Of a stretch of 64,000 nt of DNA, positions 35,760-47,890 are shown piece after piece. The stretch's first letter is position 1; every line of letters begins with the position of its first letter. Source of the DNA: a bacterium (lineage in GTDB: Bacteria > Patescibacteriota > Patescibacteriia > JAGPKW01); assembly GCA_021780535.1 (NCBI GenBank), contig JAJXYN010000009.1:224360-288359 (forward strand). The letters run 5' to 3'. The notes below the pieces were generated by a model, which searched no databases, was not told the origin of the DNA, and saw nothing but the letters and a program-made list of their open reading frames with translations. The position numbers and the translations under genes are program-made.

Positions 35760-37229
35760 TTATATATTATTTAAATAATTCAATATCTTAACCATAGCAA
35801 GCGTATCAAGATGACAATAAGTAGTTAAATCCTTATGTATTTTATCTCTATCTTCCTGAGTAAATCTTTCTTCTAATATCATCTCTCTCCAACTATTTGA
35901 AGCCGTCATTCCTTCTTTAATATTAAGCTCTTTGTATGATAATTCTGGAACAAGTATTGGGAGAACTTTTTTAATAGACCAACTTCCGTGAAATCTTCCG
36001 TCTACATAATAAGCATCGTGGAATATGTCCATTAAATCAAATACTCTTTCATTTACATTTAACAAGAAATTATTGTAATTAGGATATCTTTCAGCCATTT
36101 CTCTATTACAACCCATTTCAAAAGATTTATTCCATACAATTACGCTCCCATTATCATCTTTTATTATTTCTTTTAATGTTTTAACTAAATCTATAGAAGG
36201 GTCAGTATTTTCTTTTCCTAGAAATTCAAAATGTTCTAATTCTGAATATGGGGTTTGTTGTATGTGTAATGAATATTGAAATACAACTCTTTGGTATGGC
36301 TTATATCCATTAAACATAGGAATAGCTGGGTTTAAAGTTTCGTAATCAAGAAAATATAAAGGATATTTTAATTTAGATAATTCTTCCTTTATTTTATCTT
36401 TCTCTATATGAGGTTTTCCTGTATTTAAACTCTCTACATAGTATTTCTTTAAATCATTTGTAAGATAACTATCAGGTATATCTTTAGCGTGTATTATTCC
36501 TTCATCAATTAAATTCATTAACTTATTCTCTCTGAATTGAAAGTTATAAATACTATCATCAGGAATATCTTTTTGGCAGTAATCTATAAAATTACAAGTT
36601 TCTGGATTTTTACATTGAGAAAGTATTTCAACATTAAGTTCTTCTTTAAATGTAAGAACTTCTTTTAATTTACTTATTTCATTTTTAACTTCTTCTAGTT
36701 TTTCTATAACTTCTATAGTCTTGTTTTCAATACTAAAATATTGATTTATATCTATTTCACCATTTCTAATATATTGATTATTAACGTGAACTACATAAGT
36801 TTCACCAATACTTAATCCTTGTTTTTCTAATACAATCTTTTGAAAAGCTAAATCTTTAATATGTTGTTTATCTACTTCTGTAGTAGCTTTAATTTCATAT
36901 ATATCAAACTTATTTGTTTCGTTATTAAATTTTAATATATCAGAACGACAATATAACTCATCAACAATAAAAGTGGCTTGATGAATGATTTTAGCACCTT
37001 CTTTAATATATTTTTCTGTTTCTAAGCTACCTTGAAGTTTATCCTCTGTAATTATCTTATCTTTACTATCAAATAACTTATATGCGAGAGTTTCAACTTG
37101 ATATCCTTCTTCTATTTTAAGTTGTTCATTTTTATCTGGAGGTAATACTAAATCTGGTCTATTGATAAATAGCCAAGCAAATTTAGGACATTGTATAAAA
37201 CGTAGATAGTCGGATTTTGTTATTAACAT
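35760..37229 (-). CDS. Nuclease-like protein with an N-terminal Cas4-like PD-(D/E)xK module and a C-terminal FLDYET-bearing domain (recalled as DUF2779)
   Basis: MLITKSDYLRFIQCPKFAWL N-terminus. D…D…EIK motif (VDELYCRSD…IYEIKATT). Cys cluster CKNPETCNFIDYC. C-terminal YFLDYET…VVFQYSLH…VWNKSFE (DEDD/RNase-H-like). The start abuts the res stop (37229/37230). Confidence 0.5.
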   Translation of the reverse strand: MLITKSDYLRFIQCPKFAWLFINRPDLVLPPDKNEQLKIEEGYQVETLAYKLFDSKDKIITEDKLQGSLETEKYIKEGAKIIHQATFIVDELYCRSDILKFNNETNKFDIYEIKATTEVDKQHIKDLAFQKIVLEKQGLSIGETYVVHVNNQYIRNGEIDINQYFSIENKTIEVIEKLEEVKNEISKLKEVLTFKEELNVEILSQCKNPETCNFIDYCQKDIPDDSIYNFQFRENKLMNLIDEGIIHAKDIPDSYLTNDLKKYYVESLNTGKPHIEKDKIKEELSKLKYPLYFLDYETLNPAIPMFNGYKPYQRVVFQYSLHIQQTPYSELEHFEFLGKENTDPSIDLVKTLKEIIKDDNGSVIVWNKSFEMGCNREMAERYPNYNNFLLNVNERVFDLMDIFHDAYYVDGRFHGSWSIKKVLPILVPELSYKELNIKEGMTASNSWREMILEERFTQEDRDKIHKDLTTYCHLDTLAMVKILNYLNNI

Positions 37230-39473
37230 TTAGTTTAAACTTATAAGATTGCCGTTACTAACTTCATATACATCATTTGTGTTTAATTTAAATAATCTAC
37301 CGTTTTCTTTTGGTATAACTATACCACCAAATAATTTATTATTTCCAGCTTCTTTTATATATTCCTGTAGGGCTTCTGCTTTTAACTTTGTTTCTAATTG
37401 TTCTGCTGTTATTCCTTCTTTTGTATCAAAAATACCAATTCTTTCATCTTTATATTTTACTATAAAATCTGGATAAAAACCTTTTAGCTCATTATTCATT
37501 TTATAAGTTATTCCAAAAAATATTTTATTTCCTTGTCCATTTTTAAACCACCACTCAATCTCACTACTTTGTTCCAAATAATTATTTATAAAGTCATTTT
37601 CAGTTTTCCATTTATTATCTAAAAAACAAGGACTTAATATACATTTATCAAAATTGTTTTCATTAAACGTATCTGGGTATGATAAATATTCCGGTACGTT
37701 AAATATTGTTTCAATAGGTTCTTTTATTTTTATTTCTCTTGATTTTATATATTCATCTTTTGATTTATTTATTAAATCTATAAAAAAACTCTGATTTGTT
37801 AATACGATACTTTGTATATCTAATCTACTTTTATTTTGTTCTTCAAATCCAAGATATTTTTCAAAAAGTTCATATATTGATTGCTCTAATATCCCAGTAG
37901 ACCTAGATTGTTGAAATGGAGCACATAAAGAGCTTAAAAATGAGTAAAATAATACTTTTACATATGAATATGATTGTTTAAATTCTTCTTTTTTATCACC
38001 ACTCAAAAAGATTTTGTTATCTATTTCATCTATATTTGAAAATCCTAAATTTGTTATAATTTTTGTATTTAGTTCTTTATTAAAATCAATAAATTTATTT
38101 GCTATGTTTATGTTTTCTTTACTTTTTTCTATATCATAAAATCCATTTATTTTATTAAAAAACTCTTTATGTAAAAATGGTCTAAATTCTAACTTTAAAT
38201 CATTGTAATCAATTCTAGGTAAATAGTATGATTTTAGATTTATGTTTGAGTATAAATTTTTTCTTTTTGCTTCTTTTCTTTTTATGTATTCTTGGGCAAC
38301 ACCTTCAGCAATAGAAATATTTTCTATATTTGTATATAAATAAGCTTTATTTAAATCTTCATTTTGGTAATGCTTTAGTTCTGGCATTCTCATTATTCTA
38401 CCAACTGTTTGTATTTCAAAAATTTGACTTCCTGTTTCTCTGAATTTAATTAAAATTTGAGCCCTTGGACAATCCCAACCAGTCGCTATTGCTTGTTTAA
38501 AGATTAAAGCATCTATAATACTGCTATTTCTATCTATTTCTTCTAAATTCACTTTATCTTCTGAAAGCCACAAAGATAATCTTTTATTTTCTTCTGTTAT
38601 ATTAAATTTATTTTTTAAAATATCTTTAATTTCATCAATTTTTTGTTTGTCTAAATCACTTAAAGTACTCTTTTCATTTGGTAATTGAATTAAAATAAGA
38701 GGATTTATATTAGAATTATTTTTTAAATATAAATCTTTTAAATATTTTTGTTTTTTAATAGCTTCCTCTATTATTGCTTCATCTATAATTAAATTTCTAT
38801 CATTTTTTAACTCTGGATTTATAATAACTTCTTTTTTTATCATTTGTTCATCAATAACATCCTGTAATTCTACGTCAACATTCGGGTTTTCTTCTGGTGT
38901 TGCGGAAATATCTATTTGTAGTTTTGGTTGAATAATTTCATCTATTATTTTTTTACTATCTATCGTCATATGTAAATGACTTTCGTCTATAATAAGAATA
39001 ATTGTTCTACCTTCATCTTTTGCGTTTGTTATAAAATTTTTTAAATTTCTGTTATATTCATTATCCGCCATAAAAATATTAGTATAATCACCAGATTGTA
39101 TACCTTTTTCAGGATTATCCTGTTTTGCTTTATTTCTTATTTTTTCCCAATTTATAAAAAGTATCTCATTTTGTTTTAATATATTATCTTGGACATCTTC
39201 TAAATTTGAAAACTTAAAAACACCATTATTTATTATAGATTGAAGTCTATTTTTACTTTGATTATGTAATTCGTGTATAGATAACCAAACAAAGCTAAAA
39301 TTACCTTGTATTTCTTTAGTAAATCTTTCTAGATATTTTGCTATCATAACTGTTTTTCCAGAGCCGGTAGGAGCTTTAAATACTATTTTTCTGTTATCAT
39401 TTTTATTTAAAAATTTCACAGTCTCTTCAAAAAGTTCGTTTATAGCTTTTATTTGATAATTTTTTAATTCCAT
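37230..39473 (-). CDS. res: Type III restriction enzyme, Res subunit
   Basis: 747 aa. SF2 helicase motifs (KAPTGSGKT, LIIDESHL, TVGRIMRMP) and a C-terminal PD…(D/E)xK (YPDFIV…IFDTKEG). Directly downstream of mod. Confidence 0.8.
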   Translation of the reverse strand: MELKNYQIKAINELFEETVKFLNKNDNRKIVFKAPTGSGKTVMIAKYLERFTKEIQGNFSFVWLSIHELHNQSKNRLQSIINNGVFKFSNLEDVQDNILKQNEILFINWEKIRNKAKQDNPEKGIQSGDYTNIFMADNEYNRNLKNFITNAKDEGRTIILIIDESHLHMTIDSKKIIDEIIQPKLQIDISATPEENPNVDVELQDVIDEQMIKKEVIINPELKNDRNLIIDEAIIEEAIKKQKYLKDLYLKNNSNINPLILIQLPNEKSTLSDLDKQKIDEIKDILKNKFNITEENKRLSLWLSEDKVNLEEIDRNSSIIDALIFKQAIATGWDCPRAQILIKFRETGSQIFEIQTVGRIMRMPELKHYQNEDLNKAYLYTNIENISIAEGVAQEYIKRKEAKRKNLYSNINLKSYYLPRIDYNDLKLEFRPFLHKEFFNKINGFYDIEKSKENINIANKFIDFNKELNTKIITNLGFSNIDEIDNKIFLSGDKKEEFKQSYSYVKVLFYSFLSSLCAPFQQSRSTGILEQSIYELFEKYLGFEEQNKSRLDIQSIVLTNQSFFIDLINKSKDEYIKSREIKIKEPIETIFNVPEYLSYPDTFNENNFDKCILSPCFLDNKWKTENDFINNYLEQSSEIEWWFKNGQGNKIFFGITYKMNNELKGFYPDFIVKYKDERIGIFDTKEGITAEQLETKLKAEALQEYIKEAGNNKLFGGIVIPKENGRLFKLNTNDVYEVSNGNLISLN

Positions 39474-39476
39474 ATT

Positions 39477-41195
39477 TTAAAAATTAAATATCTTCTTATA
39501 TGTTTCTAGTATTGGGTCTGGTATATCTTCCAATTCCAAATTCAAATTTAAATGTTCCAATTCTTGTTTAAAATTTATTTTTGATGGAGAAAATATATAC
39601 ATTTTAATCTTCTTATGTTCTAATTTTAATAAGTCTTTTTTAAATTCATCAAACATAAATAAATCAAATAAAATAGCTAGATAGATATCTTTATTTTGAT
39701 AAATTTTTATCATTTTTCCATTTTTTACAACACTAAAACAATCCTCTTTTAAACAAAGAATTTCTGTTGACCTATTAACCATTTTTTTTCTTAAGTCATC
39801 TGTTATTTTATCTAAATTTATAAAATCTGTTTTTAAATATTTTAGATTTCCTTTGAGGGCTTTTATTGTTTTGCCCTTTTTGTTTTTATAGCCCTCTATT
39901 ACTTTTTTTATTCTTAAATAACATATATCTTCGCATATTTTATGTTCAGATTTTTCATCGCCATTATTTGTACATAGTATAAATTTTCTATTCCCATTAT
40001 CTTCATTATTTAATTCCAAAACAGCTTGTCCCGTTGTTCCTGAACCAGCAAAAAAATCTAAAACAGTTATGTTATTATTTTTATTTGTAATTGAAATTAA
40101 ATGTTTAATAAGTTCTTTTGGTTTAGAAAAAGGAAAATCAATATCTAGTTTAATAAGTTCTTTTGAGCCCATAGAGTTTGGCATATCAATAAAAGTAAGT
40201 GGCTTCATACCAGCTTCTTGTCTTTCGTGTAAATAAATTTTTGTGTAAACATTCCATATAGACCTTTTACCACTCTCATCTATTAAAGGAGATGTTTTTG
40301 TTTTTAGAAAAACAACTCTATTTTCTTCTAATTTTGATTTAAATGTAGATGGTATCCATCTAAACATTTTATTTTCAAAAGGAGTTGTAACCTTTGTTCC
40401 GTCTGGGCACTCTATAAAATATCTCTGATTTGGACGTTTATCTAGACTTGGCATATATAAAGATACTAAATTATATTTTCCTCTATCATCTGAATATTTA
40501 AATAATTTTATATATTCAGAACTTTCTTGAGCTTCAGCATCGTTAAATTCTTCTAATAAATCTATATTTTTTGCATAACAAAGAATGTAATCTGTTGAGG
40601 GAGAAAAAAATCTACCCTTATTACTTGTTTCTTTTTGTTTTCTAACTACATTTGCTAAAAAATTTTGTTCTCCAAATATTTCATCGCATAATATCTTTAA
40701 TTGATACAATTCATCATCTCCAATTGAAATAAATATAACCCCATTATTATTTAGAAGTTCCTTAGCTAATTTCAATCTTTTATTCATAAAAGATAACCAC
40801 TTAGAATGTCTAAATCTATCTTCTTTATCAACAAATACATCATTATAAATGAAATCTTTATTCCCAGTATTGTATGGTGGGTCAATATATATAACATCTA
40901 TTTTTTCTTTATGTGTATAGCTTAACACAGACAAAGAATGATAATTATCTCCTTCTATAAGTATGTTCATACTATCATTTATATCAGATATTACATCATT
41001 ATAATTATCTTTTTTCTTCTCACTTAAAACAGGAAGGGATATTTCAGATTGTTTTTCAAAAATCTCTTTTTTATCTTCCCATATTAAACCATACCTCTTA
41101 TTTTTTTTAACAGTTTTTATTTGTTTTTTTAACTTTTCTATCTCATTTAATAATTCTTGTTCTTTTTGATTGTTTTGCATAAAAAAATCGGACAC
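39477..41195 (-). CDS. mod: Type III R-M DNA methyltransferase, Mod subunit (N6-adenine, beta class)
   Basis: DPPY motif IV (IYIDPPYNTG) before the C-terminal motif I (FFAGSGTTGQA). GTG start at 41195, with an alternative ATG at 41180. Confidence 0.8.
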   Translation of the reverse strand: MSDFFMQNNQKEQELLNEIEKLKKQIKTVKKNKRYGLIWEDKKEIFEKQSEISLPVLSEKKKDNYNDVISDINDSMNILIEGDNYHSLSVLSYTHKEKIDVIYIDPPYNTGNKDFIYNDVFVDKEDRFRHSKWLSFMNKRLKLAKELLNNNGVIFISIGDDELYQLKILCDEIFGEQNFLANVVRKQKETSNKGRFFSPSTDYILCYAKNIDLLEEFNDAEAQESSEYIKLFKYSDDRGKYNLVSLYMPSLDKRPNQRYFIECPDGTKVTTPFENKMFRWIPSTFKSKLEENRVVFLKTKTSPLIDESGKRSIWNVYTKIYLHERQEAGMKPLTFIDMPNSMGSKELIKLDIDFPFSKPKELIKHLISITNKNNNITVLDFFAGSGTTGQAVLELNNEDNGNRKFILCTNNGDEKSEHKICEDICYLRIKKVIEGYKNKKGKTIKALKGNLKYLKTDFINLDKITDDLRKKMVNRSTEILCLKEDCFSVVKNGKMIKIYQNKDIYLAILFDLFMFDEFKKDLLKLEHKKIKMYIFSPSKINFKQELEHLNLNLELEDIPDPILETYKKIFNF

Positions 41196-41400
41196 CTGAC
41201 TAGTTAGCTTGCGAAGCTACATAGTGGTATCCGAGAGACGCCACTTATGATTTAACCGTCAGATGCCCGATTATCTTCATAAATGGCGAATATATGTATT
41301 AAAAAATACAAAATAAACAAAAAACAATTATCTGTAATAATTGCAGTATTCTCTCGGATATTAAATTGTAGCTTCGCATTATCTAATATAACCTTAATAT
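41189..41400. repeat. GC-rich structured element with nested long-range inverted repeats
   Basis: Arms tgcgaagctaca…tatccgagaga (41210-41238) and tctctcggata…tgtagcttcgca (41350-41378). Inner pair cgccacttatga (41239-41250) with tcataaatggcg (41277-41288). Pair cggacacctgac (41189-41200) with ccgtcagatgcccg (41256-41269). Confidence 0.45.
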
Positions 41401-41544
41401 AACAAAAAAACAAGGCGATGCTATAACAAAATGTCTTTCTTTGTTTTTTATTATATTATTGAGCAACACTTCAATATATGTGTTGAAAAATGTGATATTT
41501 TAGAATAAGATAAAAGTAATATTTATATTTAAATTAAGATTAAA

Positions 41545-42642
41545 ATGGAAGAATTATTTAAAAATTTGAAACCTTACTCAAAAATAACCTTTTACAATGA
41601 TACAACGCCATTAGAATACGACTGTTTTGATTTAATTTTTGACTTATATCACGATTTTTATTCTTTAAATAGAGACACTACTTATACACTTAAAAAAAGT
41701 TTTGTATTTGATGATGATGAATTTAATAAAATTAAAATATTTTTAGAAGAATTAAAAAATGCTAATATTATTGATAGTTTTTCTGAAGAAAAAACAGCTC
41801 TTAAACCAAAAGATGATGATGATATAATAATGTGGCTGAATAGTAAATTCGATATAAAAATATTATTTACACCAAAAATAGAAGGATTTGATTTACTTGG
41901 CTATATTGCAGAAAAAAATAAATTAAATATCTACGGGGATAAAATACAAAAACAAAAGATATCTAAGATGATTTTATCTAAATTCGAAGAATACCAAAAT
42001 AATGAGTTATTTTTTGATTTGTATTATAGTGATGAATGGAATAATTCTGAAGATATAGAAAAATATTTAGATGGTTCATATTCTGATTACGAAAAGATAA
42101 ACGCATTTAAAACACTAAGAAATCTAGAGAATGATAAAATAATACAAATAAAAGAAACTTCCGTATTAAGAGAATATGGAAATAAAATAATTATAGCAAA
42201 TGTAAAAATAAAAATATTGGAAACAGATAAGCTTTATAATGCGAGCTATGATAAATCTAAAAAAGAAATTACTACTGATAAAGAAATAAACACTGAACAA
42301 TTTCTATATACCTACAATAAACAAAAGAAAAATGGCTCGCTTGTTTTAAAAAGCTTTGGGGAATACGTTAATTTTACAGGAAGAAGGAGCGCAATATTTC
42401 TATTTTTTTACAAAAAAAGAAATGAAAATAAATTTTTTGATTACAAAGAACTAAATTTATTTCTAAAAGAAAATGATTTTGAAGAAATAAAATCCGATGG
42501 CTTAAACAAAGACATTAAAACAGTTAATAAAATTATAAATGTTTTAACAAACAATGAATTAAAAGAAATAATACTTATAGATAAAGAGAAAAATGAAAAA
42601 GACGCTGATATAAATGTTTATAAATTTAATAACCTAAAATAG
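41545..42642 (+). CDS. Hypothetical protein (365 aa), first gene of the element
   Basis: ORF only. Asp/Glu/Lys-rich with no recognised motif. Confidence 0.45.
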   Translation: MEELFKNLKPYSKITFYNDTTPLEYDCFDLIFDLYHDFYSLNRDTTYTLKKSFVFDDDEFNKIKIFLEELKNANIIDSFSEEKTALKPKDDDDIIMWLNSKFDIKILFTPKIEGFDLLGYIAEKNKLNIYGDKIQKQKISKMILSKFEEYQNNELFFDLYYSDEWNNSEDIEKYLDGSYSDYEKINAFKTLRNLENDKIIQIKETSVLREYGNKIIIANVKIKILETDKLYNASYDKSKKEITTDKEINTEQFLYTYNKQKKNGSLVLKSFGEYVNFTGRRSAIFLFFYKKRNENKFFDYKELNLFLKENDFEEIKSDGLNKDIKTVNKIINVLTNNELKEIILIDKEKNEKDADINVYKFNNLK

Positions 42643-46204: not shown

Positions 46205-47827
46205 ATGATAAAAGAAAATAGAAATTTAAAATATGCTATATATCTTCGTAAATCAACTGATAGTGAAGATAGACAAGTTCAGTCAATAGAAGACCAAGAA
46301 AAAGAAATAAATATTTTAGTAGAAAGAGAAGGAATTAAAAAAGAAAATATAATAGAAATCTTCAAAGAAAGTAAATCTGCCAAAAAACCTGGGAGAGAAG
46401 AATTCAATAGAATGATGTGTTTAATAAAAGAAGGCAAAATTGATAGTGTTATGTGTTGGAAATTAAATCGTTTAGCAAGAAATCCTATCGATGGTGGCGA
46501 AATTCAATGGTTACTACAACAAAATATAATTAAATCAATATTAACAAATGAAAGAGAATACCTTCCAACTGACAATGTTCTTATGATGGCAGTTGAATTG
46601 GGAATGGCAAATCAATTTGTATTAGACTTAAGTAAAGATGTTAAAAGAGGAATGAGGGGTAAAGTAGAAAAAGGCTGGAGACCAATGAGAGCTCCCATTG
46701 GATATATAAACGACAAAGCTGGTAATAAAGGAGAGAAAAAGATTTTTAGAGATGAAACTAGATTTGATATAGTGAGAAAGTGTTGGGAGCTTTTATTTAC
46801 AAGAAAATATACAGTACCAGAAATTACAGAAATAGCTAATGAAACATATGGTTTAAGAGACTATAAAGGTGAGAAAATAAATAATAGCACCTTTTATAAG
46901 ATATTTAGAAATACTTTTTATTATGGAGAGTTTAGTTATTGTGGCGAAGTGTATCAAGGAAAACACGAACCAATGATAACAAAAACAGAATTTGAATACG
47001 CTCAAGATATTTTAAGTGGTAGTAAACATAATAAAAGACCAAAAACAAAAAATCTCCCATACAATGGAATTATTACTTGTGGCGAATGTGGCTGTTATAT
47101 TACATCAGAAGAGAAAATAAAATATGTTAAGTCAGAAAATAAAGTCAAAAATTATGTATATAATAAATGTTGTAGTAATAATAGATGTTTTAAATGTTCT
47201 CAGAAGCCAATAAAATATGAAGAATTGTCTGAACAAGTTAAAAAATACCTAGAAACAATAAAGATAACTGATAAATTTTTTAATTTTGCCCTAATGGTTT
47301 TCAAAGAAAGAAATATGGTAGAAGAAGAAAATAGAAATAGTATCATAAGAAACTTACAATCAAATCATACGGAGGTTATAAAAAAGATAGATAACTTAAT
47401 AAATTTATTTGTATCTCAAAATAATCAAAATAGAGAGCTTTTAAGTGAAGATGAATATATTTCTCAAAAATCATTTCTTGCTAAAGAAAAAATAAGAATA
47501 GAACAACAAATAAAGGATATTATGGAAGAAACATCAACTCAAGATAAAAGATTTGATGACGAAATAAACTTTGTTCATACAGAAATAGAAATGTTTGATA
47601 ATGGGAGTTATGAAAAAAGAACTCAAATATTAAGAAAAATGGGAGAAAGCTTTATTTTAAAGGATGGAATGCTTGATATACAATTAAAAAAAGTATTTCT
47701 AACATTCACTACTTACCAGTCAGAGTATAAAAAGAGAGAAATAGAACTAAGCAATATAAGAAATTTCAGCGAATTTAAAACAAAAAAAGAAGCTGATGCT
47801 TCTTTTCGTTCTATCTGGAGCGGGTAA
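46205..47827 (+). CDS. Large serine recombinase (integrase)
   Basis: N-terminal resolvase domain (AIYLRKSTDSEDRQ…LNRLARN), recombinase domain and Cys-rich zinc ribbon (CGECGCYIT…C…C). 540 aa. Confidence 0.85.
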   Translation: MIKENRNLKYAIYLRKSTDSEDRQVQSIEDQEKEINILVEREGIKKENIIEIFKESKSAKKPGREEFNRMMCLIKEGKIDSVMCWKLNRLARNPIDGGEIQWLLQQNIIKSILTNEREYLPTDNVLMMAVELGMANQFVLDLSKDVKRGMRGKVEKGWRPMRAPIGYINDKAGNKGEKKIFRDETRFDIVRKCWELLFTRKYTVPEITEIANETYGLRDYKGEKINNSTFYKIFRNTFYYGEFSYCGEVYQGKHEPMITKTEFEYAQDILSGSKHNKRPKTKNLPYNGIITCGECGCYITSEEKIKYVKSENKVKNYVYNKCCSNNRCFKCSQKPIKYEELSEQVKKYLETIKITDKFFNFALMVFKERNMVEEENRNSIIRNLQSNHTEVIKKIDNLINLFVSQNNQNRELLSEDEYISQKSFLAKEKIRIEQQIKDIMEETSTQDKRFDDEINFVHTEIEMFDNGSYEKRTQILRKMGESFILKDGMLDIQLKKVFLTFTTYQSEYKKREIELSNIRNFSEFKTKKEADASFRSIWSG

Positions 47828-47890
47828 GGAGAATCGGACTCCCCTCTTCAGCTTGGAAGGCTGACATAATAGCCACTATACGATACCCGC
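47816..47890 (-). tRNA. tRNA-Gly (anticodon TCC), CCA encoded, with an atypical T-loop (C at position 55)
   Basis: Reverse complement GCGGGTATCGTATAGTGGCTATTATGTCAGCCTTCCAAGCTGAAGAGGGGAGTCCGATTCTCCTTACCCGCTCCA. 7-bp acceptor stem and anticodon stem TCAGC/GCTGA. The 3' 12 nt overlap the recombinase stop. Confidence 0.65.

Follow-up and report, generated by a model that had tools for sequence, protein, structure and literature searches.

The window, by which we mean the whole 64-kb stretch of DNA analysed here, carries a minus-strand type III mod-res operon, with a DUF2779/Cas4-like gene next after res. Directly upstream of mod lies an element of about 200 nt made up of nested inverted repeats, and the last base of a U7 tract at its mod-proximal end immediately precedes the mod AUG. 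Because the U7 tract abuts the AUG, there is no space for a separate mod promoter, and transcription of mod must therefore cross the element. On the far side of the element, an A/T-rich hairpin overlaps the left copy of the best candidate for a direct repeat flanking the neighbouring island (41398-41422 vs 47776-47800). A serine recombinase gene is found 5 kb from the element, at the end of the island. The 90%-identical nth contig (L173) was considered as an island-free version of the site and rejected, as the recombinase is present there too. The features of the locus, including those of the predicted leader described below, are collected in Table 1.

Table 1. Genes and predicted features at the mod locus (window coordinates)
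Feature	Position	Strand	Remarks
DUF2779/Cas4-like gene	35760-37229		next after res
res	37230-39473	-	downstream of mod in the mod-res operon
mod, type III DNA methyltransferase gene	39477-41180	-	567 aa; AUG 41180-41178
Segment X' GUCAGGUGUCCGA plus U7 tract	41188-41200 plus 41181-41187	-	mod translation initiation region
Alternative terminator-like hairpin	41188-41234	-	19 bp in three segments; -22.1 kcal/mol; ends directly at U7
3' arms of P2 and P1 (region 2)	41210-41238	-	alternative partner is the next segment, giving the terminator-like hairpin
P4 hairpin	41239-41288	-	12-bp stem (41277-41288 with 41239-41250, one G-U), 26-nt loop; stacks directly on P2
Segment X in the P4 loop	41258-41277	-	complementary to the 20 nt just 5' of the mod AUG
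Multiloop interior	41289-41349	-	AT-rich, two short A/U-rich hairpins; predicted fold and composition
P2 5' arm UAUCCGAGAGA	41350-41360	-	partner 41228-41238; proposed antiterminator
P1 5' arm UGCGAAGCUACA	41367-41378	-	partner 41210-41221; pair probability >0.99
Promoter-like site for mod	41378-41405	-	TTGTTA (41405-41400), 16 nt, GATAAT (41383-41378); consensus scan
Alternative -10 box TATATT	41390-41385	-	6 nt ahead of the start of the outer helix
A/T-rich hairpin flanked by A- and T-runs	41395-41458	.	upstream of the mod promoter; outside the leader fold

The first-pass annotation had described three inverted-repeat pairs in a GC-rich element of an otherwise AT-rich intergenic region. A repeat search of the window bore out the three pairs and their nesting, over 41181-41378. 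The 29-nt outer arms (41210-41238 and 41350-41378) are present, with 24 of 29 positions complementary rather than the 23 counted earlier, and their perfect cores are indeed of 12 bp (41210-41221 with 41367-41378) and 11 bp (41228-41238 with 41350-41360). The element can thus be described as a 29-bp inverted repeat (IR) enclosing a 111-bp spacer. In the inner pair (41239-41250 with 41277-41288), 11 of 12 positions are Watson-Crick on the plus strand, and all 12 pair on the minus strand if one G-U is included. The third pair also exists (41187-41200 with 41258-41271), but its second arm lies 2 nt from the position first assigned to it (41256-41269); the pair can be extended to 41181-41200 with 41258-41277. 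As for composition, the GC content is 0.38-0.41 at 41150-41300 against 0.16-0.30 in the flanks and a background of about 24%. The description as GC-rich holds for the 5' half and the arms only, however, since the interior (41289-41349) is AT-rich.

Both strands of the element fold far better than expected by chance. The MFE was -66.4 kcal/mol for the plus strand and -69.8 kcal/mol for the minus strand, against -32.9 +/- 4.1 and -40.0 +/- 4.2 kcal/mol for shuffled sequences (z of -8.2 and -7.1), and none of 200 shuffles was as low on either strand. In the window, the mod-sense (minus) strand is favoured (-74.9 vs -67.1 kcal/mol), and three G-U pairs on this strand, in the inner hairpin and in the pairing of X with X' (X:X'), are C-A mismatches on the plus strand. 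Counter to this preference, two G-U pairs of the extended outer helix favour the plus strand. On the minus strand, P1 and P2 together make up an outer helix of 23 bp, with a predicted energy of -37.1 kcal/mol as a duplex, and X:X' consists of 14 contiguous pairs, two of them G-U, with -24.6 kcal/mol when extended. Three layers of complementarity meet on the 20 nt that precede the mod AUG, and X' with the U7 tract (41181-41200) provides the 3' strand in both alternative helices. The segment before the T-run scores -23.0 for a long-range partner (shuffles, -11.8 +/- 2.3), and the score for sequestration of the start region has a z of -4.8.

When the 5' arms were removed in silico, the MFE structure became a hairpin of -22 kcal/mol ending at U7-AUG. 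In silico, this part of the locus is laid out as an attenuator would be: a hairpin is followed by a U-tract, 5' of the regulated gene, and this hairpin and the predicted outer helix are mutually exclusive, as both need the 5' strand of the hairpin. A simple terminator scan misses the hairpin because its stem carries internal loops. At equilibrium, the closed state is more stable than the terminator state by 12.6 kcal/mol, and switching would therefore require some additional factor. A non-pseudoknotted X:X' pairing was also considered as an equilibrium alternative and rejected, as it came out less stable by 12.7 kcal/mol in the window and by 1-24 kcal/mol in the other leaders described below.

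We are inclined, at somewhat better than even odds, to view the element as a transcribed, cis-acting 5' leader of about 200 nt that belongs to the mod-res operon, with the outer helix as an antiterminator and anti-sequestrator of the mod start. Transcription would most likely begin at, or a few bases inside, the outer helix, and in the resulting RNA P1 and P2 would close a multiloop bearing P4. Instead of the 5' arms, the 3' arms of the outer helix could pair with the following 13-20 nt, which end in U7-AUG. The alternative hairpin formed in this way would abut the U-tract, resembling an intrinsic terminator, and would bury the mod start region as well; the start-proximal stretch could also pair with segment X in the P4 loop. 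Because the 3' arms are shared between the outer helix and the terminator-like hairpin, the outer helix would act against both termination and sequestration. With the 5' arm paired, mod-res would be read through and the start region would be open; with the 5' arm blocked or removed, the terminator or the start-sequestering helix would form and the operon would be off. Candidates for the agent that blocks or removes the 5' arm are an antisense RNA, a ribosome, a protein or processing by a nuclease. Shine-Dalgarno motifs are rare in this organism (9 of 49 ORFs), with the GC-rich start region of mod as the exception, so that structure is a plausible gate on initiation.

Matches to promoter consensus sequences around the element do not exceed the number expected by chance. 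These matches include the promoter-like site for mod and a plus-strand, antisense promoter at 41314-41341 with a hairpin downstream. A 26-codon ORF that opens at the first base of P1 and runs over the 5' arm was considered as a leader peptide and rejected; comparable ORFs are not conserved elsewhere.

Structured regions also occur upstream of other mod homologs. With z-scores from mononucleotide shuffles, and with structured defined as z<=-4 within 250 nt upstream of mod, 37 of 143 mod-homolog loci had a structured upstream region as compared to 5 of 98 control genes. CPR/Patescibacteria and Bacteroidales are among the sources of these leaders. For 35 of the 37, folding is more stable on the mod-sense strand, by a mean margin of 13.6 kcal/mol, and the G-U pairs number 375 vs 199. 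A run of at least five T residues, preceded by a segment with a strong upstream long-range partner that encloses the 3' arms of the outer helix, was found in 28/37 structured but in 3/74 unstructured loci, and sequestration of the start region (z<=-3) in 7/37 and 1/74, respectively. The architecture common to these leaders and the window consists of a -10 box just ahead of the long outer helix, a segment inside the helix that is complementary to the sequence following the 3' arm, and then a U-run. Extended -10 boxes lie 6-9 nt ahead of the outer helix at four loci (L011, L018, L021 and L033). Deletion of the 5' arm in silico increased pairing beside the U-run in all 11 CPR-type leaders, and in the CPR leaders the sequence of the 5' arm recurs at the AUG.

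One of the leader subfamilies covaries heavily. In the Paceibacterota/Parcubacteria subfamily, double changes were seen at 28 of 57 pairs, and 90.6% of cells were paired as opposed to 34-44% when the partners were slid; compensatory changes were also present in X:X' and in the AUG-side copy of the 5' arm. The Bacteroidales leaders have a conserved, G-U-rich core of about 95 nt between hypervariable outer arms. Covariance models R1 and R2 connect two CPR subfamilies, and the cores of different leader subfamilies are unrelated in sequence. No Rfam 15 family was matched by the window element (gathering threshold; local matches had E>1), and only three tRNAs were detected in the window. At both gathering and permissive thresholds, neither the element nor the leaders of 19 related loci had an Rfam family, the only hits in the window and these loci being tRNAs and an unrelated LOOT RNA. 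For type III mod genes, neither Rfam 15 nor a full-text literature search turned up a structured leader acting in cis.

No sequence homolog of the window element was found among 172 related loci or in phage, plasmid and viral collections. Model R2 gave no match to the window at E<=10 and a best score of 4.5 bits with filters off, and R1 likewise provided no link to it. The link between the window and the other leaders is therefore one of position and architecture only. The window has the architecture of the R2 family: a -10 box, the outer helix, X:X' enclosing the 3' arms, a U-run and an adjacent mod AUG, all on the sense strand. It is like the CPR leaders (Paceibacterota, Parcubacteria and Saccharibacteria; alignment A4, model R2) and the Bacteroidales leaders (alignment A2) in position, strand, -10 box, X:X' and U-run, but in most of those the U-run is 35-105 nt from the AUG, whereas in the window it abuts the AUG. 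The closest Mod homologs (59-64% identity; L083-L088 and L169-L172) are mostly without such a leader, which is present in L085 and weakly in L083; at the others RadC or a small HTH gene abuts mod upstream, or the contig ends. A metagenome scan with the Mod alignment was dominated by the generic YIDPPYNT motif and retrieved few close relatives. That an HTH gene occupies the position of the leader suggests that the two are interchangeable control modules. Tentatively, and at somewhat less than an even chance, the window element may belong to a class of structured 5' leaders, widespread and undescribed, by which type III R-M operons are gated in CPR/Patescibacteria, Bacteroidales and further phyla. 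Antitermination and anti-sequestration would be the task of the arm at the very 5' end of the transcript, which a cis-antisense RNA might titrate in the manner of pT181-type attenuation, and the leader would apparently be exchangeable with small HTH controller genes.

A leader could also respond to a ligand or protein, if a factor such as Mod, Res or a metabolite (SAM, for example) bound the folded core and chose between the closed and the terminator or sequestered state. The conserved Bacteroidales core inside its hypervariable arms does resemble a binding platform, and the overall layout is like that of a riboswitch, with an expression platform and a U-run after the closing helix. The AT-rich interior of the window element, however, is not detectably conserved in any other leader, as a riboswitch core should be; the subfamily cores are unrelated in sequence, so that no common ligand pocket is evident, and no Rfam riboswitch was matched. 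We consider such sensing unlikely. An idiosyncratic palindromic spacer appears unlikely as well; the element would then be a stable hairpin without a part in regulation, and would at most stabilise the 5' end of the mod mRNA or be left over from a local duplication. This reading would agree with the occurrence of the element at a single locus, with no sequence homolog, and with the closest Mod relatives managing without it, but it does not account for z-scores of -7 to -8, for the convergence of three layers of complementarity just before the AUG, or for the same layout in 28 of the 37 structured mod leaders of other phyla, with their strand bias and covariation.

Two further explanations place the function of the element in the DNA. 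A segment flanked by a 29-bp IR, with a 111-bp spacer, immediately 5' of a gene of a class prone to phase variation could be an inverton, flipped by a serine recombinase to switch mod on or off, and the recombinase 5 kb away has a weaker match to DNA invertases. Nevertheless, that protein is of the 540-aa integrase type, at the end of the island. Pairing is nested throughout the element and extends beyond the IR to the mod start, neither of which an inverton needs, and the G-U strand bias across the leaders indicates RNA rather than DNA, where no strand should be preferred. Moreover, no pair of related loci has the interior in inverted orientation, and the promoter-like matches inside the element do not exceed chance. 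An inverton is thus very improbable. Hardly any weight is left for the first-pass suggestions of a MITE-like insertion or of a terminal or att region of the adjacent island. Terminal inverted repeats are present (29-nt arms, 83% complementary), the 6-nt flanks TTAGCT (41204-41209) and TTATCT (41379-41384), compared as a candidate target-site duplication, agree at 5 of 6 positions, and the island is near; such agreement between flanks is indistinguishable from chance in AT-rich DNA. BLASTN or pattern searches of the 64-kb window, the 172 related loci and the phage, plasmid and viral collections gave no second copy, and complementarity of the interior to the pre-existing mod start (13-20 nt before the ATG) is not expected of an inserted MITE. 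The resemblance to the 3' end of tRNA-Gly, noted earlier in favour of an att site, is a real match of 10/13, but 9 such matches occur in the window where 11.1 are expected, and it lies on the strand opposite to that of the tRNA gene. In addition, the candidate repeat flanking the island lies beyond the limits of the element, genomes without this island also have mod homologs preceded by leaders that share the architecture, and the first ORF of the island and the serine recombinase, examined as a means of defining the island ends, have no relatives in viral contigs. Of the three ideas first put forward, that of a structured RNA is the one favoured, not as a free-standing ncRNA or a part of the island but as a cis-acting leader of mod.

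The predicted cis-acting leader has counterparts among known systems. The pT181 repC and pIP501/pAMbeta1 repR leaders are attenuators of transcription of plasmid rep genes, controlled by antisense RNAs. In these leaders, segments 1 and 2 form the pre-emptor or antiterminator, segments 2 and 3 form a terminator whose U-tract is just 5' of the start codon, and blocking of segment 1 leads to termination. In silico, the window leader has the same three-segment layout. It differs in that a countertranscript is hinted at only by the consensus-match plus-strand promoter and the hairpin downstream, in preceding an R-M operon rather than a replication gene, and in the extra loop-to-start pairing X:X'. 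As in the expression platforms of riboswitches and classical attenuators, the closing helix and a helix that terminates or sequesters the start are alternatives, and a U-run comes right after the latter, but the window leader has no conserved ligand core, Rfam match or conserved leader peptide. Long-range fold-back control of translation is known from the fbi and tac elements of hok mRNA and from fold-back inhibition in IS10. There, 5'-terminal and start-proximal segments compete for one strand, which is reminiscent of the CPR leaders, where the 5' arm is repeated at the AUG; in the window, in contrast, the predicted partners of the start region are a hairpin loop and the 3' arms, not the end of the transcript.

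R-M systems must balance methylase against nuclease both on entering a new host and later. Their known regulators are C proteins, autorepression by the methyltransferase and antisense RNAs (EcoRI and Eco29kI), to which phase variation of repeat tracts is added in type III systems. Control of M and R expression is presumably the purpose of the window leader as well, but the known regulators are protein- or trans-RNA-based and mainly of type II systems, whereas the window has a predicted cis leader in a type III system. To our knowledge, there are hardly any examples of regulatory RNAs in CPR bacteria. About a quarter of the 143 homologous loci have a leader and none of these is in Rfam, which makes the alignments ready material for new RNA families, and their recurrence also offers a simple, testable design around the 5' arm and termination at the U-tract. 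If the proposed role is correct, an RNA leader with alternative pairings that gates the whole mod-res operon would be an extra layer of control, the first described for type III systems, and one present in the CPR.

All three inverted-repeat pairs proposed in the first-pass annotation were found, by sequence reading and with a repeat finder (40700-41900), directly upstream of the minus-strand mod gene. The 29-nt arms of the outer pair (41210-41238 and 41350-41378) are complementary at 24 of 29 positions and contain two helices, P1 and P2, set apart by a symmetrical internal loop with 6 nt on each side. The element had also been called GC-rich, which holds for 41150-41300 (0.38-0.41 versus a background of about 0.24) but not for its interior at 41289-41349, which is AT-rich. 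When folded as RNA, the 221 nt gave -66.4 kcal/mol for the plus strand and -69.8 kcal/mol for the minus strand, as against -32.9 +/- 4.1 and -40.0 +/- 4.2 kcal/mol for dinucleotide shuffles (z = -8.2 and -7.1). The nested inverted repeats are real, and chance is ruled out.

Coordinates of the features discussed (in the window unless a locus, L, is named)
Feature	Position	Strand	Remark
mod, type III methyltransferase	39477-41180	minus	left of element
res, type III restriction subunit	37230-39473	minus	left of element
DUF2779 protein	35760-37229	minus	after res, same orientation; weak Cas4-like N-terminal match
Large serine recombinase, 540 aa	46205-47827	plus	
tRNA-Gly(UCC)	47816-47890	minus	
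P1, outer helix	41210-41221 / 41367-41378		perfect 12-bp helix
P2, outer helix	41228-41238 / 41350-41360		perfect 11-bp helix
P4, inner pair	41239-41250 / 41277-41288		
X' / X, third pair	41187-41200 / 41258-41271		extendable to 41181-41200 / 41258-41277
Leader group, mostly Bacteroidales	L034, L043, L045, L047-L049, L051, L063, L069, L079		~280 nt upstream of mod
HTH_17/MerR-type gene, 65 aa	L169 1301-1498; also L170, L171 5' ends		adjoins mod; Mod 63-64% identity

To the right of the element, the plus strand carries a block of small ORFs without known function, with the serine recombinase at its end, and a mobile origin of the repeats had been considered. No Rfam family matched the element, and searches of the window, of phage, plasmid and viral-contig collections and of the 172 fetched loci found no second copy, which leaves a MITE unsupported. 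A resemblance to tRNA-Gly had suggested an att site; however, this 10/13 match is one of 9 in the window, where 11.1 are expected, and the tRNA is encoded on the other strand, which makes an attL/attR relation impossible. The island itself appears to be inserted at or beside the 3' end of tRNA-Gly(UCC), since the last 12 nt of the recombinase ORF (to 47827) overlap the 3' end of this opposite-strand gene. The same junction is present in L173, a contig of a relative with an nth gene at least 90% identical. The best direct repeat between the island flanks (41398-41422 and 47776-47800) is imperfect (21/25), flanks the block of ~6.4 kb with the recombinase at its end, and was equalled by 3 of 500 shuffles and 7 of 493 random genomic windows. 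Its two copies may be the island ends; the structured element would then fall on the mod side, beyond the island. The left copy shares bases with the -35 region of a putative mod promoter. No relatives of the island proteins were found in viral contigs and the contig of a close relative likewise carries the island, so that an empty site was not obtained.

We then folded the 250 nt upstream of the mod start in loci with Mod homologs (80 from species-representative genomes, 80 from metagenomes, plus the closest homologs, 59-64% identical), none of which shares sequence with the element. At z <= -4, the upstream region was structured in 37 of 143 mod loci, versus 5 of 98 other genes of the same loci with intergenic upstream regions. 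Among the structured loci are those of Paceibacterota, Parcubacteria, Saccharibacteria and Gracilibacteria, a compact group of ten that are for the most part from Bacteroidales MAGs (one is binned as Staphylococcus and two are unclassified), and members of Paludibacteraceae, Prevotella and Victivallales. The mod-sense strand folded better than its complement in 35 of the 37, by a mean of 13.6 kcal/mol (4.1 kcal/mol only in unstructured loci), with 375 predicted G-U pairs versus 199. Both biases point to RNA of the mod-sense strand rather than a DNA palindrome, and no inverted-orientation matches were found between any two loci. Thus, the element is most likely the mod leader RNA on the minus strand, and the initial reading as a structured ncRNA was right in this more specific form.

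The leaders share a layout. In those of the CPR, an outer helix of 13-20 bp begins 6-9 nt after a -10 box, which is often TG-extended; the sequence of the helix varies by locus while pairing is preserved. The 3' arm is followed by X', complementary to an interior segment X, and then by a T5-T7 run; this arrangement was found in 28 of 37 structured versus 3 of 74 unstructured loci. X:X' duplexes reach -16 to -26 kcal/mol, versus about -10 to -16 with shuffled X' (window score, -23.0 versus -11.8 +/- 2.3). Several CPR groups carry a copy of the 5' arm at the start codon of mod; across four lineages the copied sequences are GTCTACCC, TGTTCACCTA, TGTCGCC and GTCACAA. The start region is complementary to the leader (z <= -3) in 7 of 37 structured versus 1 of 74 unstructured loci (window, -24.8 kcal/mol, z -4.8). 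The mostly Bacteroidales group has a nearly invariant, G-U-rich core of ~95 nt inside arms that differ wholly between near-identical loci and are still complementary; GATACCCAC..TTTTTT and a conserved GTCGC..GCGAC hairpin follow downstream. This group looks like an undescribed RNA family. Rfam gave no match for the structured mod leaders, even at permissive thresholds. On the metagenome contig L095, a LOOT RNA (RF03000, 86.8 bits; 691-817) precedes a mod homolog by ~150 nt.

Covariation in CPR leaders supports the pairing. A covariance model of L011, L018 and L085 recovered L021 and L033 (E about 1e-5), and the resulting five-sequence alignment showed both-sided changes in 28 of 57 pairs, with 90.6% of cells paired versus 34-44% with slid partners; these values were reached by 0 of 500 shuffles, in an alignment that is fitted to the model and leans towards structure. 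X:X' also changes in a compensatory manner, from U-A to C-G (L011 versus L085) and from A-U to G-C (L021 versus L033). No homolog of the window's element was detectable, and two covariance models from CPR mod leaders, R1 and R2, gave it no score; its place in a leader family is therefore one of position and architecture only.

In the window, a U7 tract (41187-41181, minus strand) runs to the base just before the mod AUG (41180-41178). Shine-Dalgarno-like 4-mers precede only 9 of the 49 ORFs of at least 120 aa, and translation in this organism seems to start on A/U-rich leaders without structure. As the regions upstream of other genes are almost pure A/T, the structured, GC-rich mod start is exceptional here and is a plausible control point. 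The mod-sense RNA from 41378 to 41175 has an MFE of -69.5 kcal/mol, and P1, P2 and P4 each have a pair probability above 0.99. Upon in silico removal of the 5' arms, the 3' arms find a new partner in the segment behind them, giving a 19-bp hairpin (41234-41188, -22.1 kcal/mol) whose end falls exactly at U7-AUG. The 20 nt before the mod start are also complementary to the P4 loop (X:X', -24.6 kcal/mol), in a helix with two G-U pairs; the other strand would have mismatches in their place. Because the 3' arms are shared, the outer helix (-37.1 kcal/mol) is in competition with a helix that resembles a terminator and buries the start. Deletion of the 5' arm raised pairing next to the U run from 3-9 to 10-13 pairs in all 11 CPR-type leaders, the window's included.

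We infer transcription, termination and a trigger for a leader switch in which the 5' arm of this cis-acting leader would serve as both antiterminator and anti-sequestrator: with the 5' arm paired the operon would be on, and with the arm blocked or lost it would be off. In the window's leader the off state lies 12.6 kcal/mol above the on state, so some driving factor would be needed. Attenuation is antisense-controlled in rep leaders of the pT181/pIP501 type, with which the layout agrees. Possibly, a countertranscript over the 5' arms could start at a plus-strand, TG-extended promoter-like site inside the leader (41314-41341) and stop downstream at an A/T-rich hairpin with a T6 run behind it (41395-41458); this step is speculative, as promoter-like matches in the region are not above chance. 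A 26-codon ORF, MRSYNLISERILQLLQIIVFCLFCIF (41299-41379, minus strand), starts with an AUG where the 5' arm of P1 begins and spans both 5' arms. It is a possible leaderless leader peptide, but ORFs like it are not conserved in other leaders.

A DUF2779 gene also follows res in the locus L088, so that this type III system may include the Cas4-like protein as a third component. Most of the closest Mod relatives have no leader, and a small HTH_17 gene, which may encode a C-protein-like controller, or RadC adjoins mod instead; the control modules in front of mod thus seem interchangeable in this clade. No earlier description of such leaders was found in the literature, coverage of which was incomplete. 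The element would be a leader of the attenuator type, in a gene setting for which none is described, and the interest of the pattern is that it recurs across phyla.
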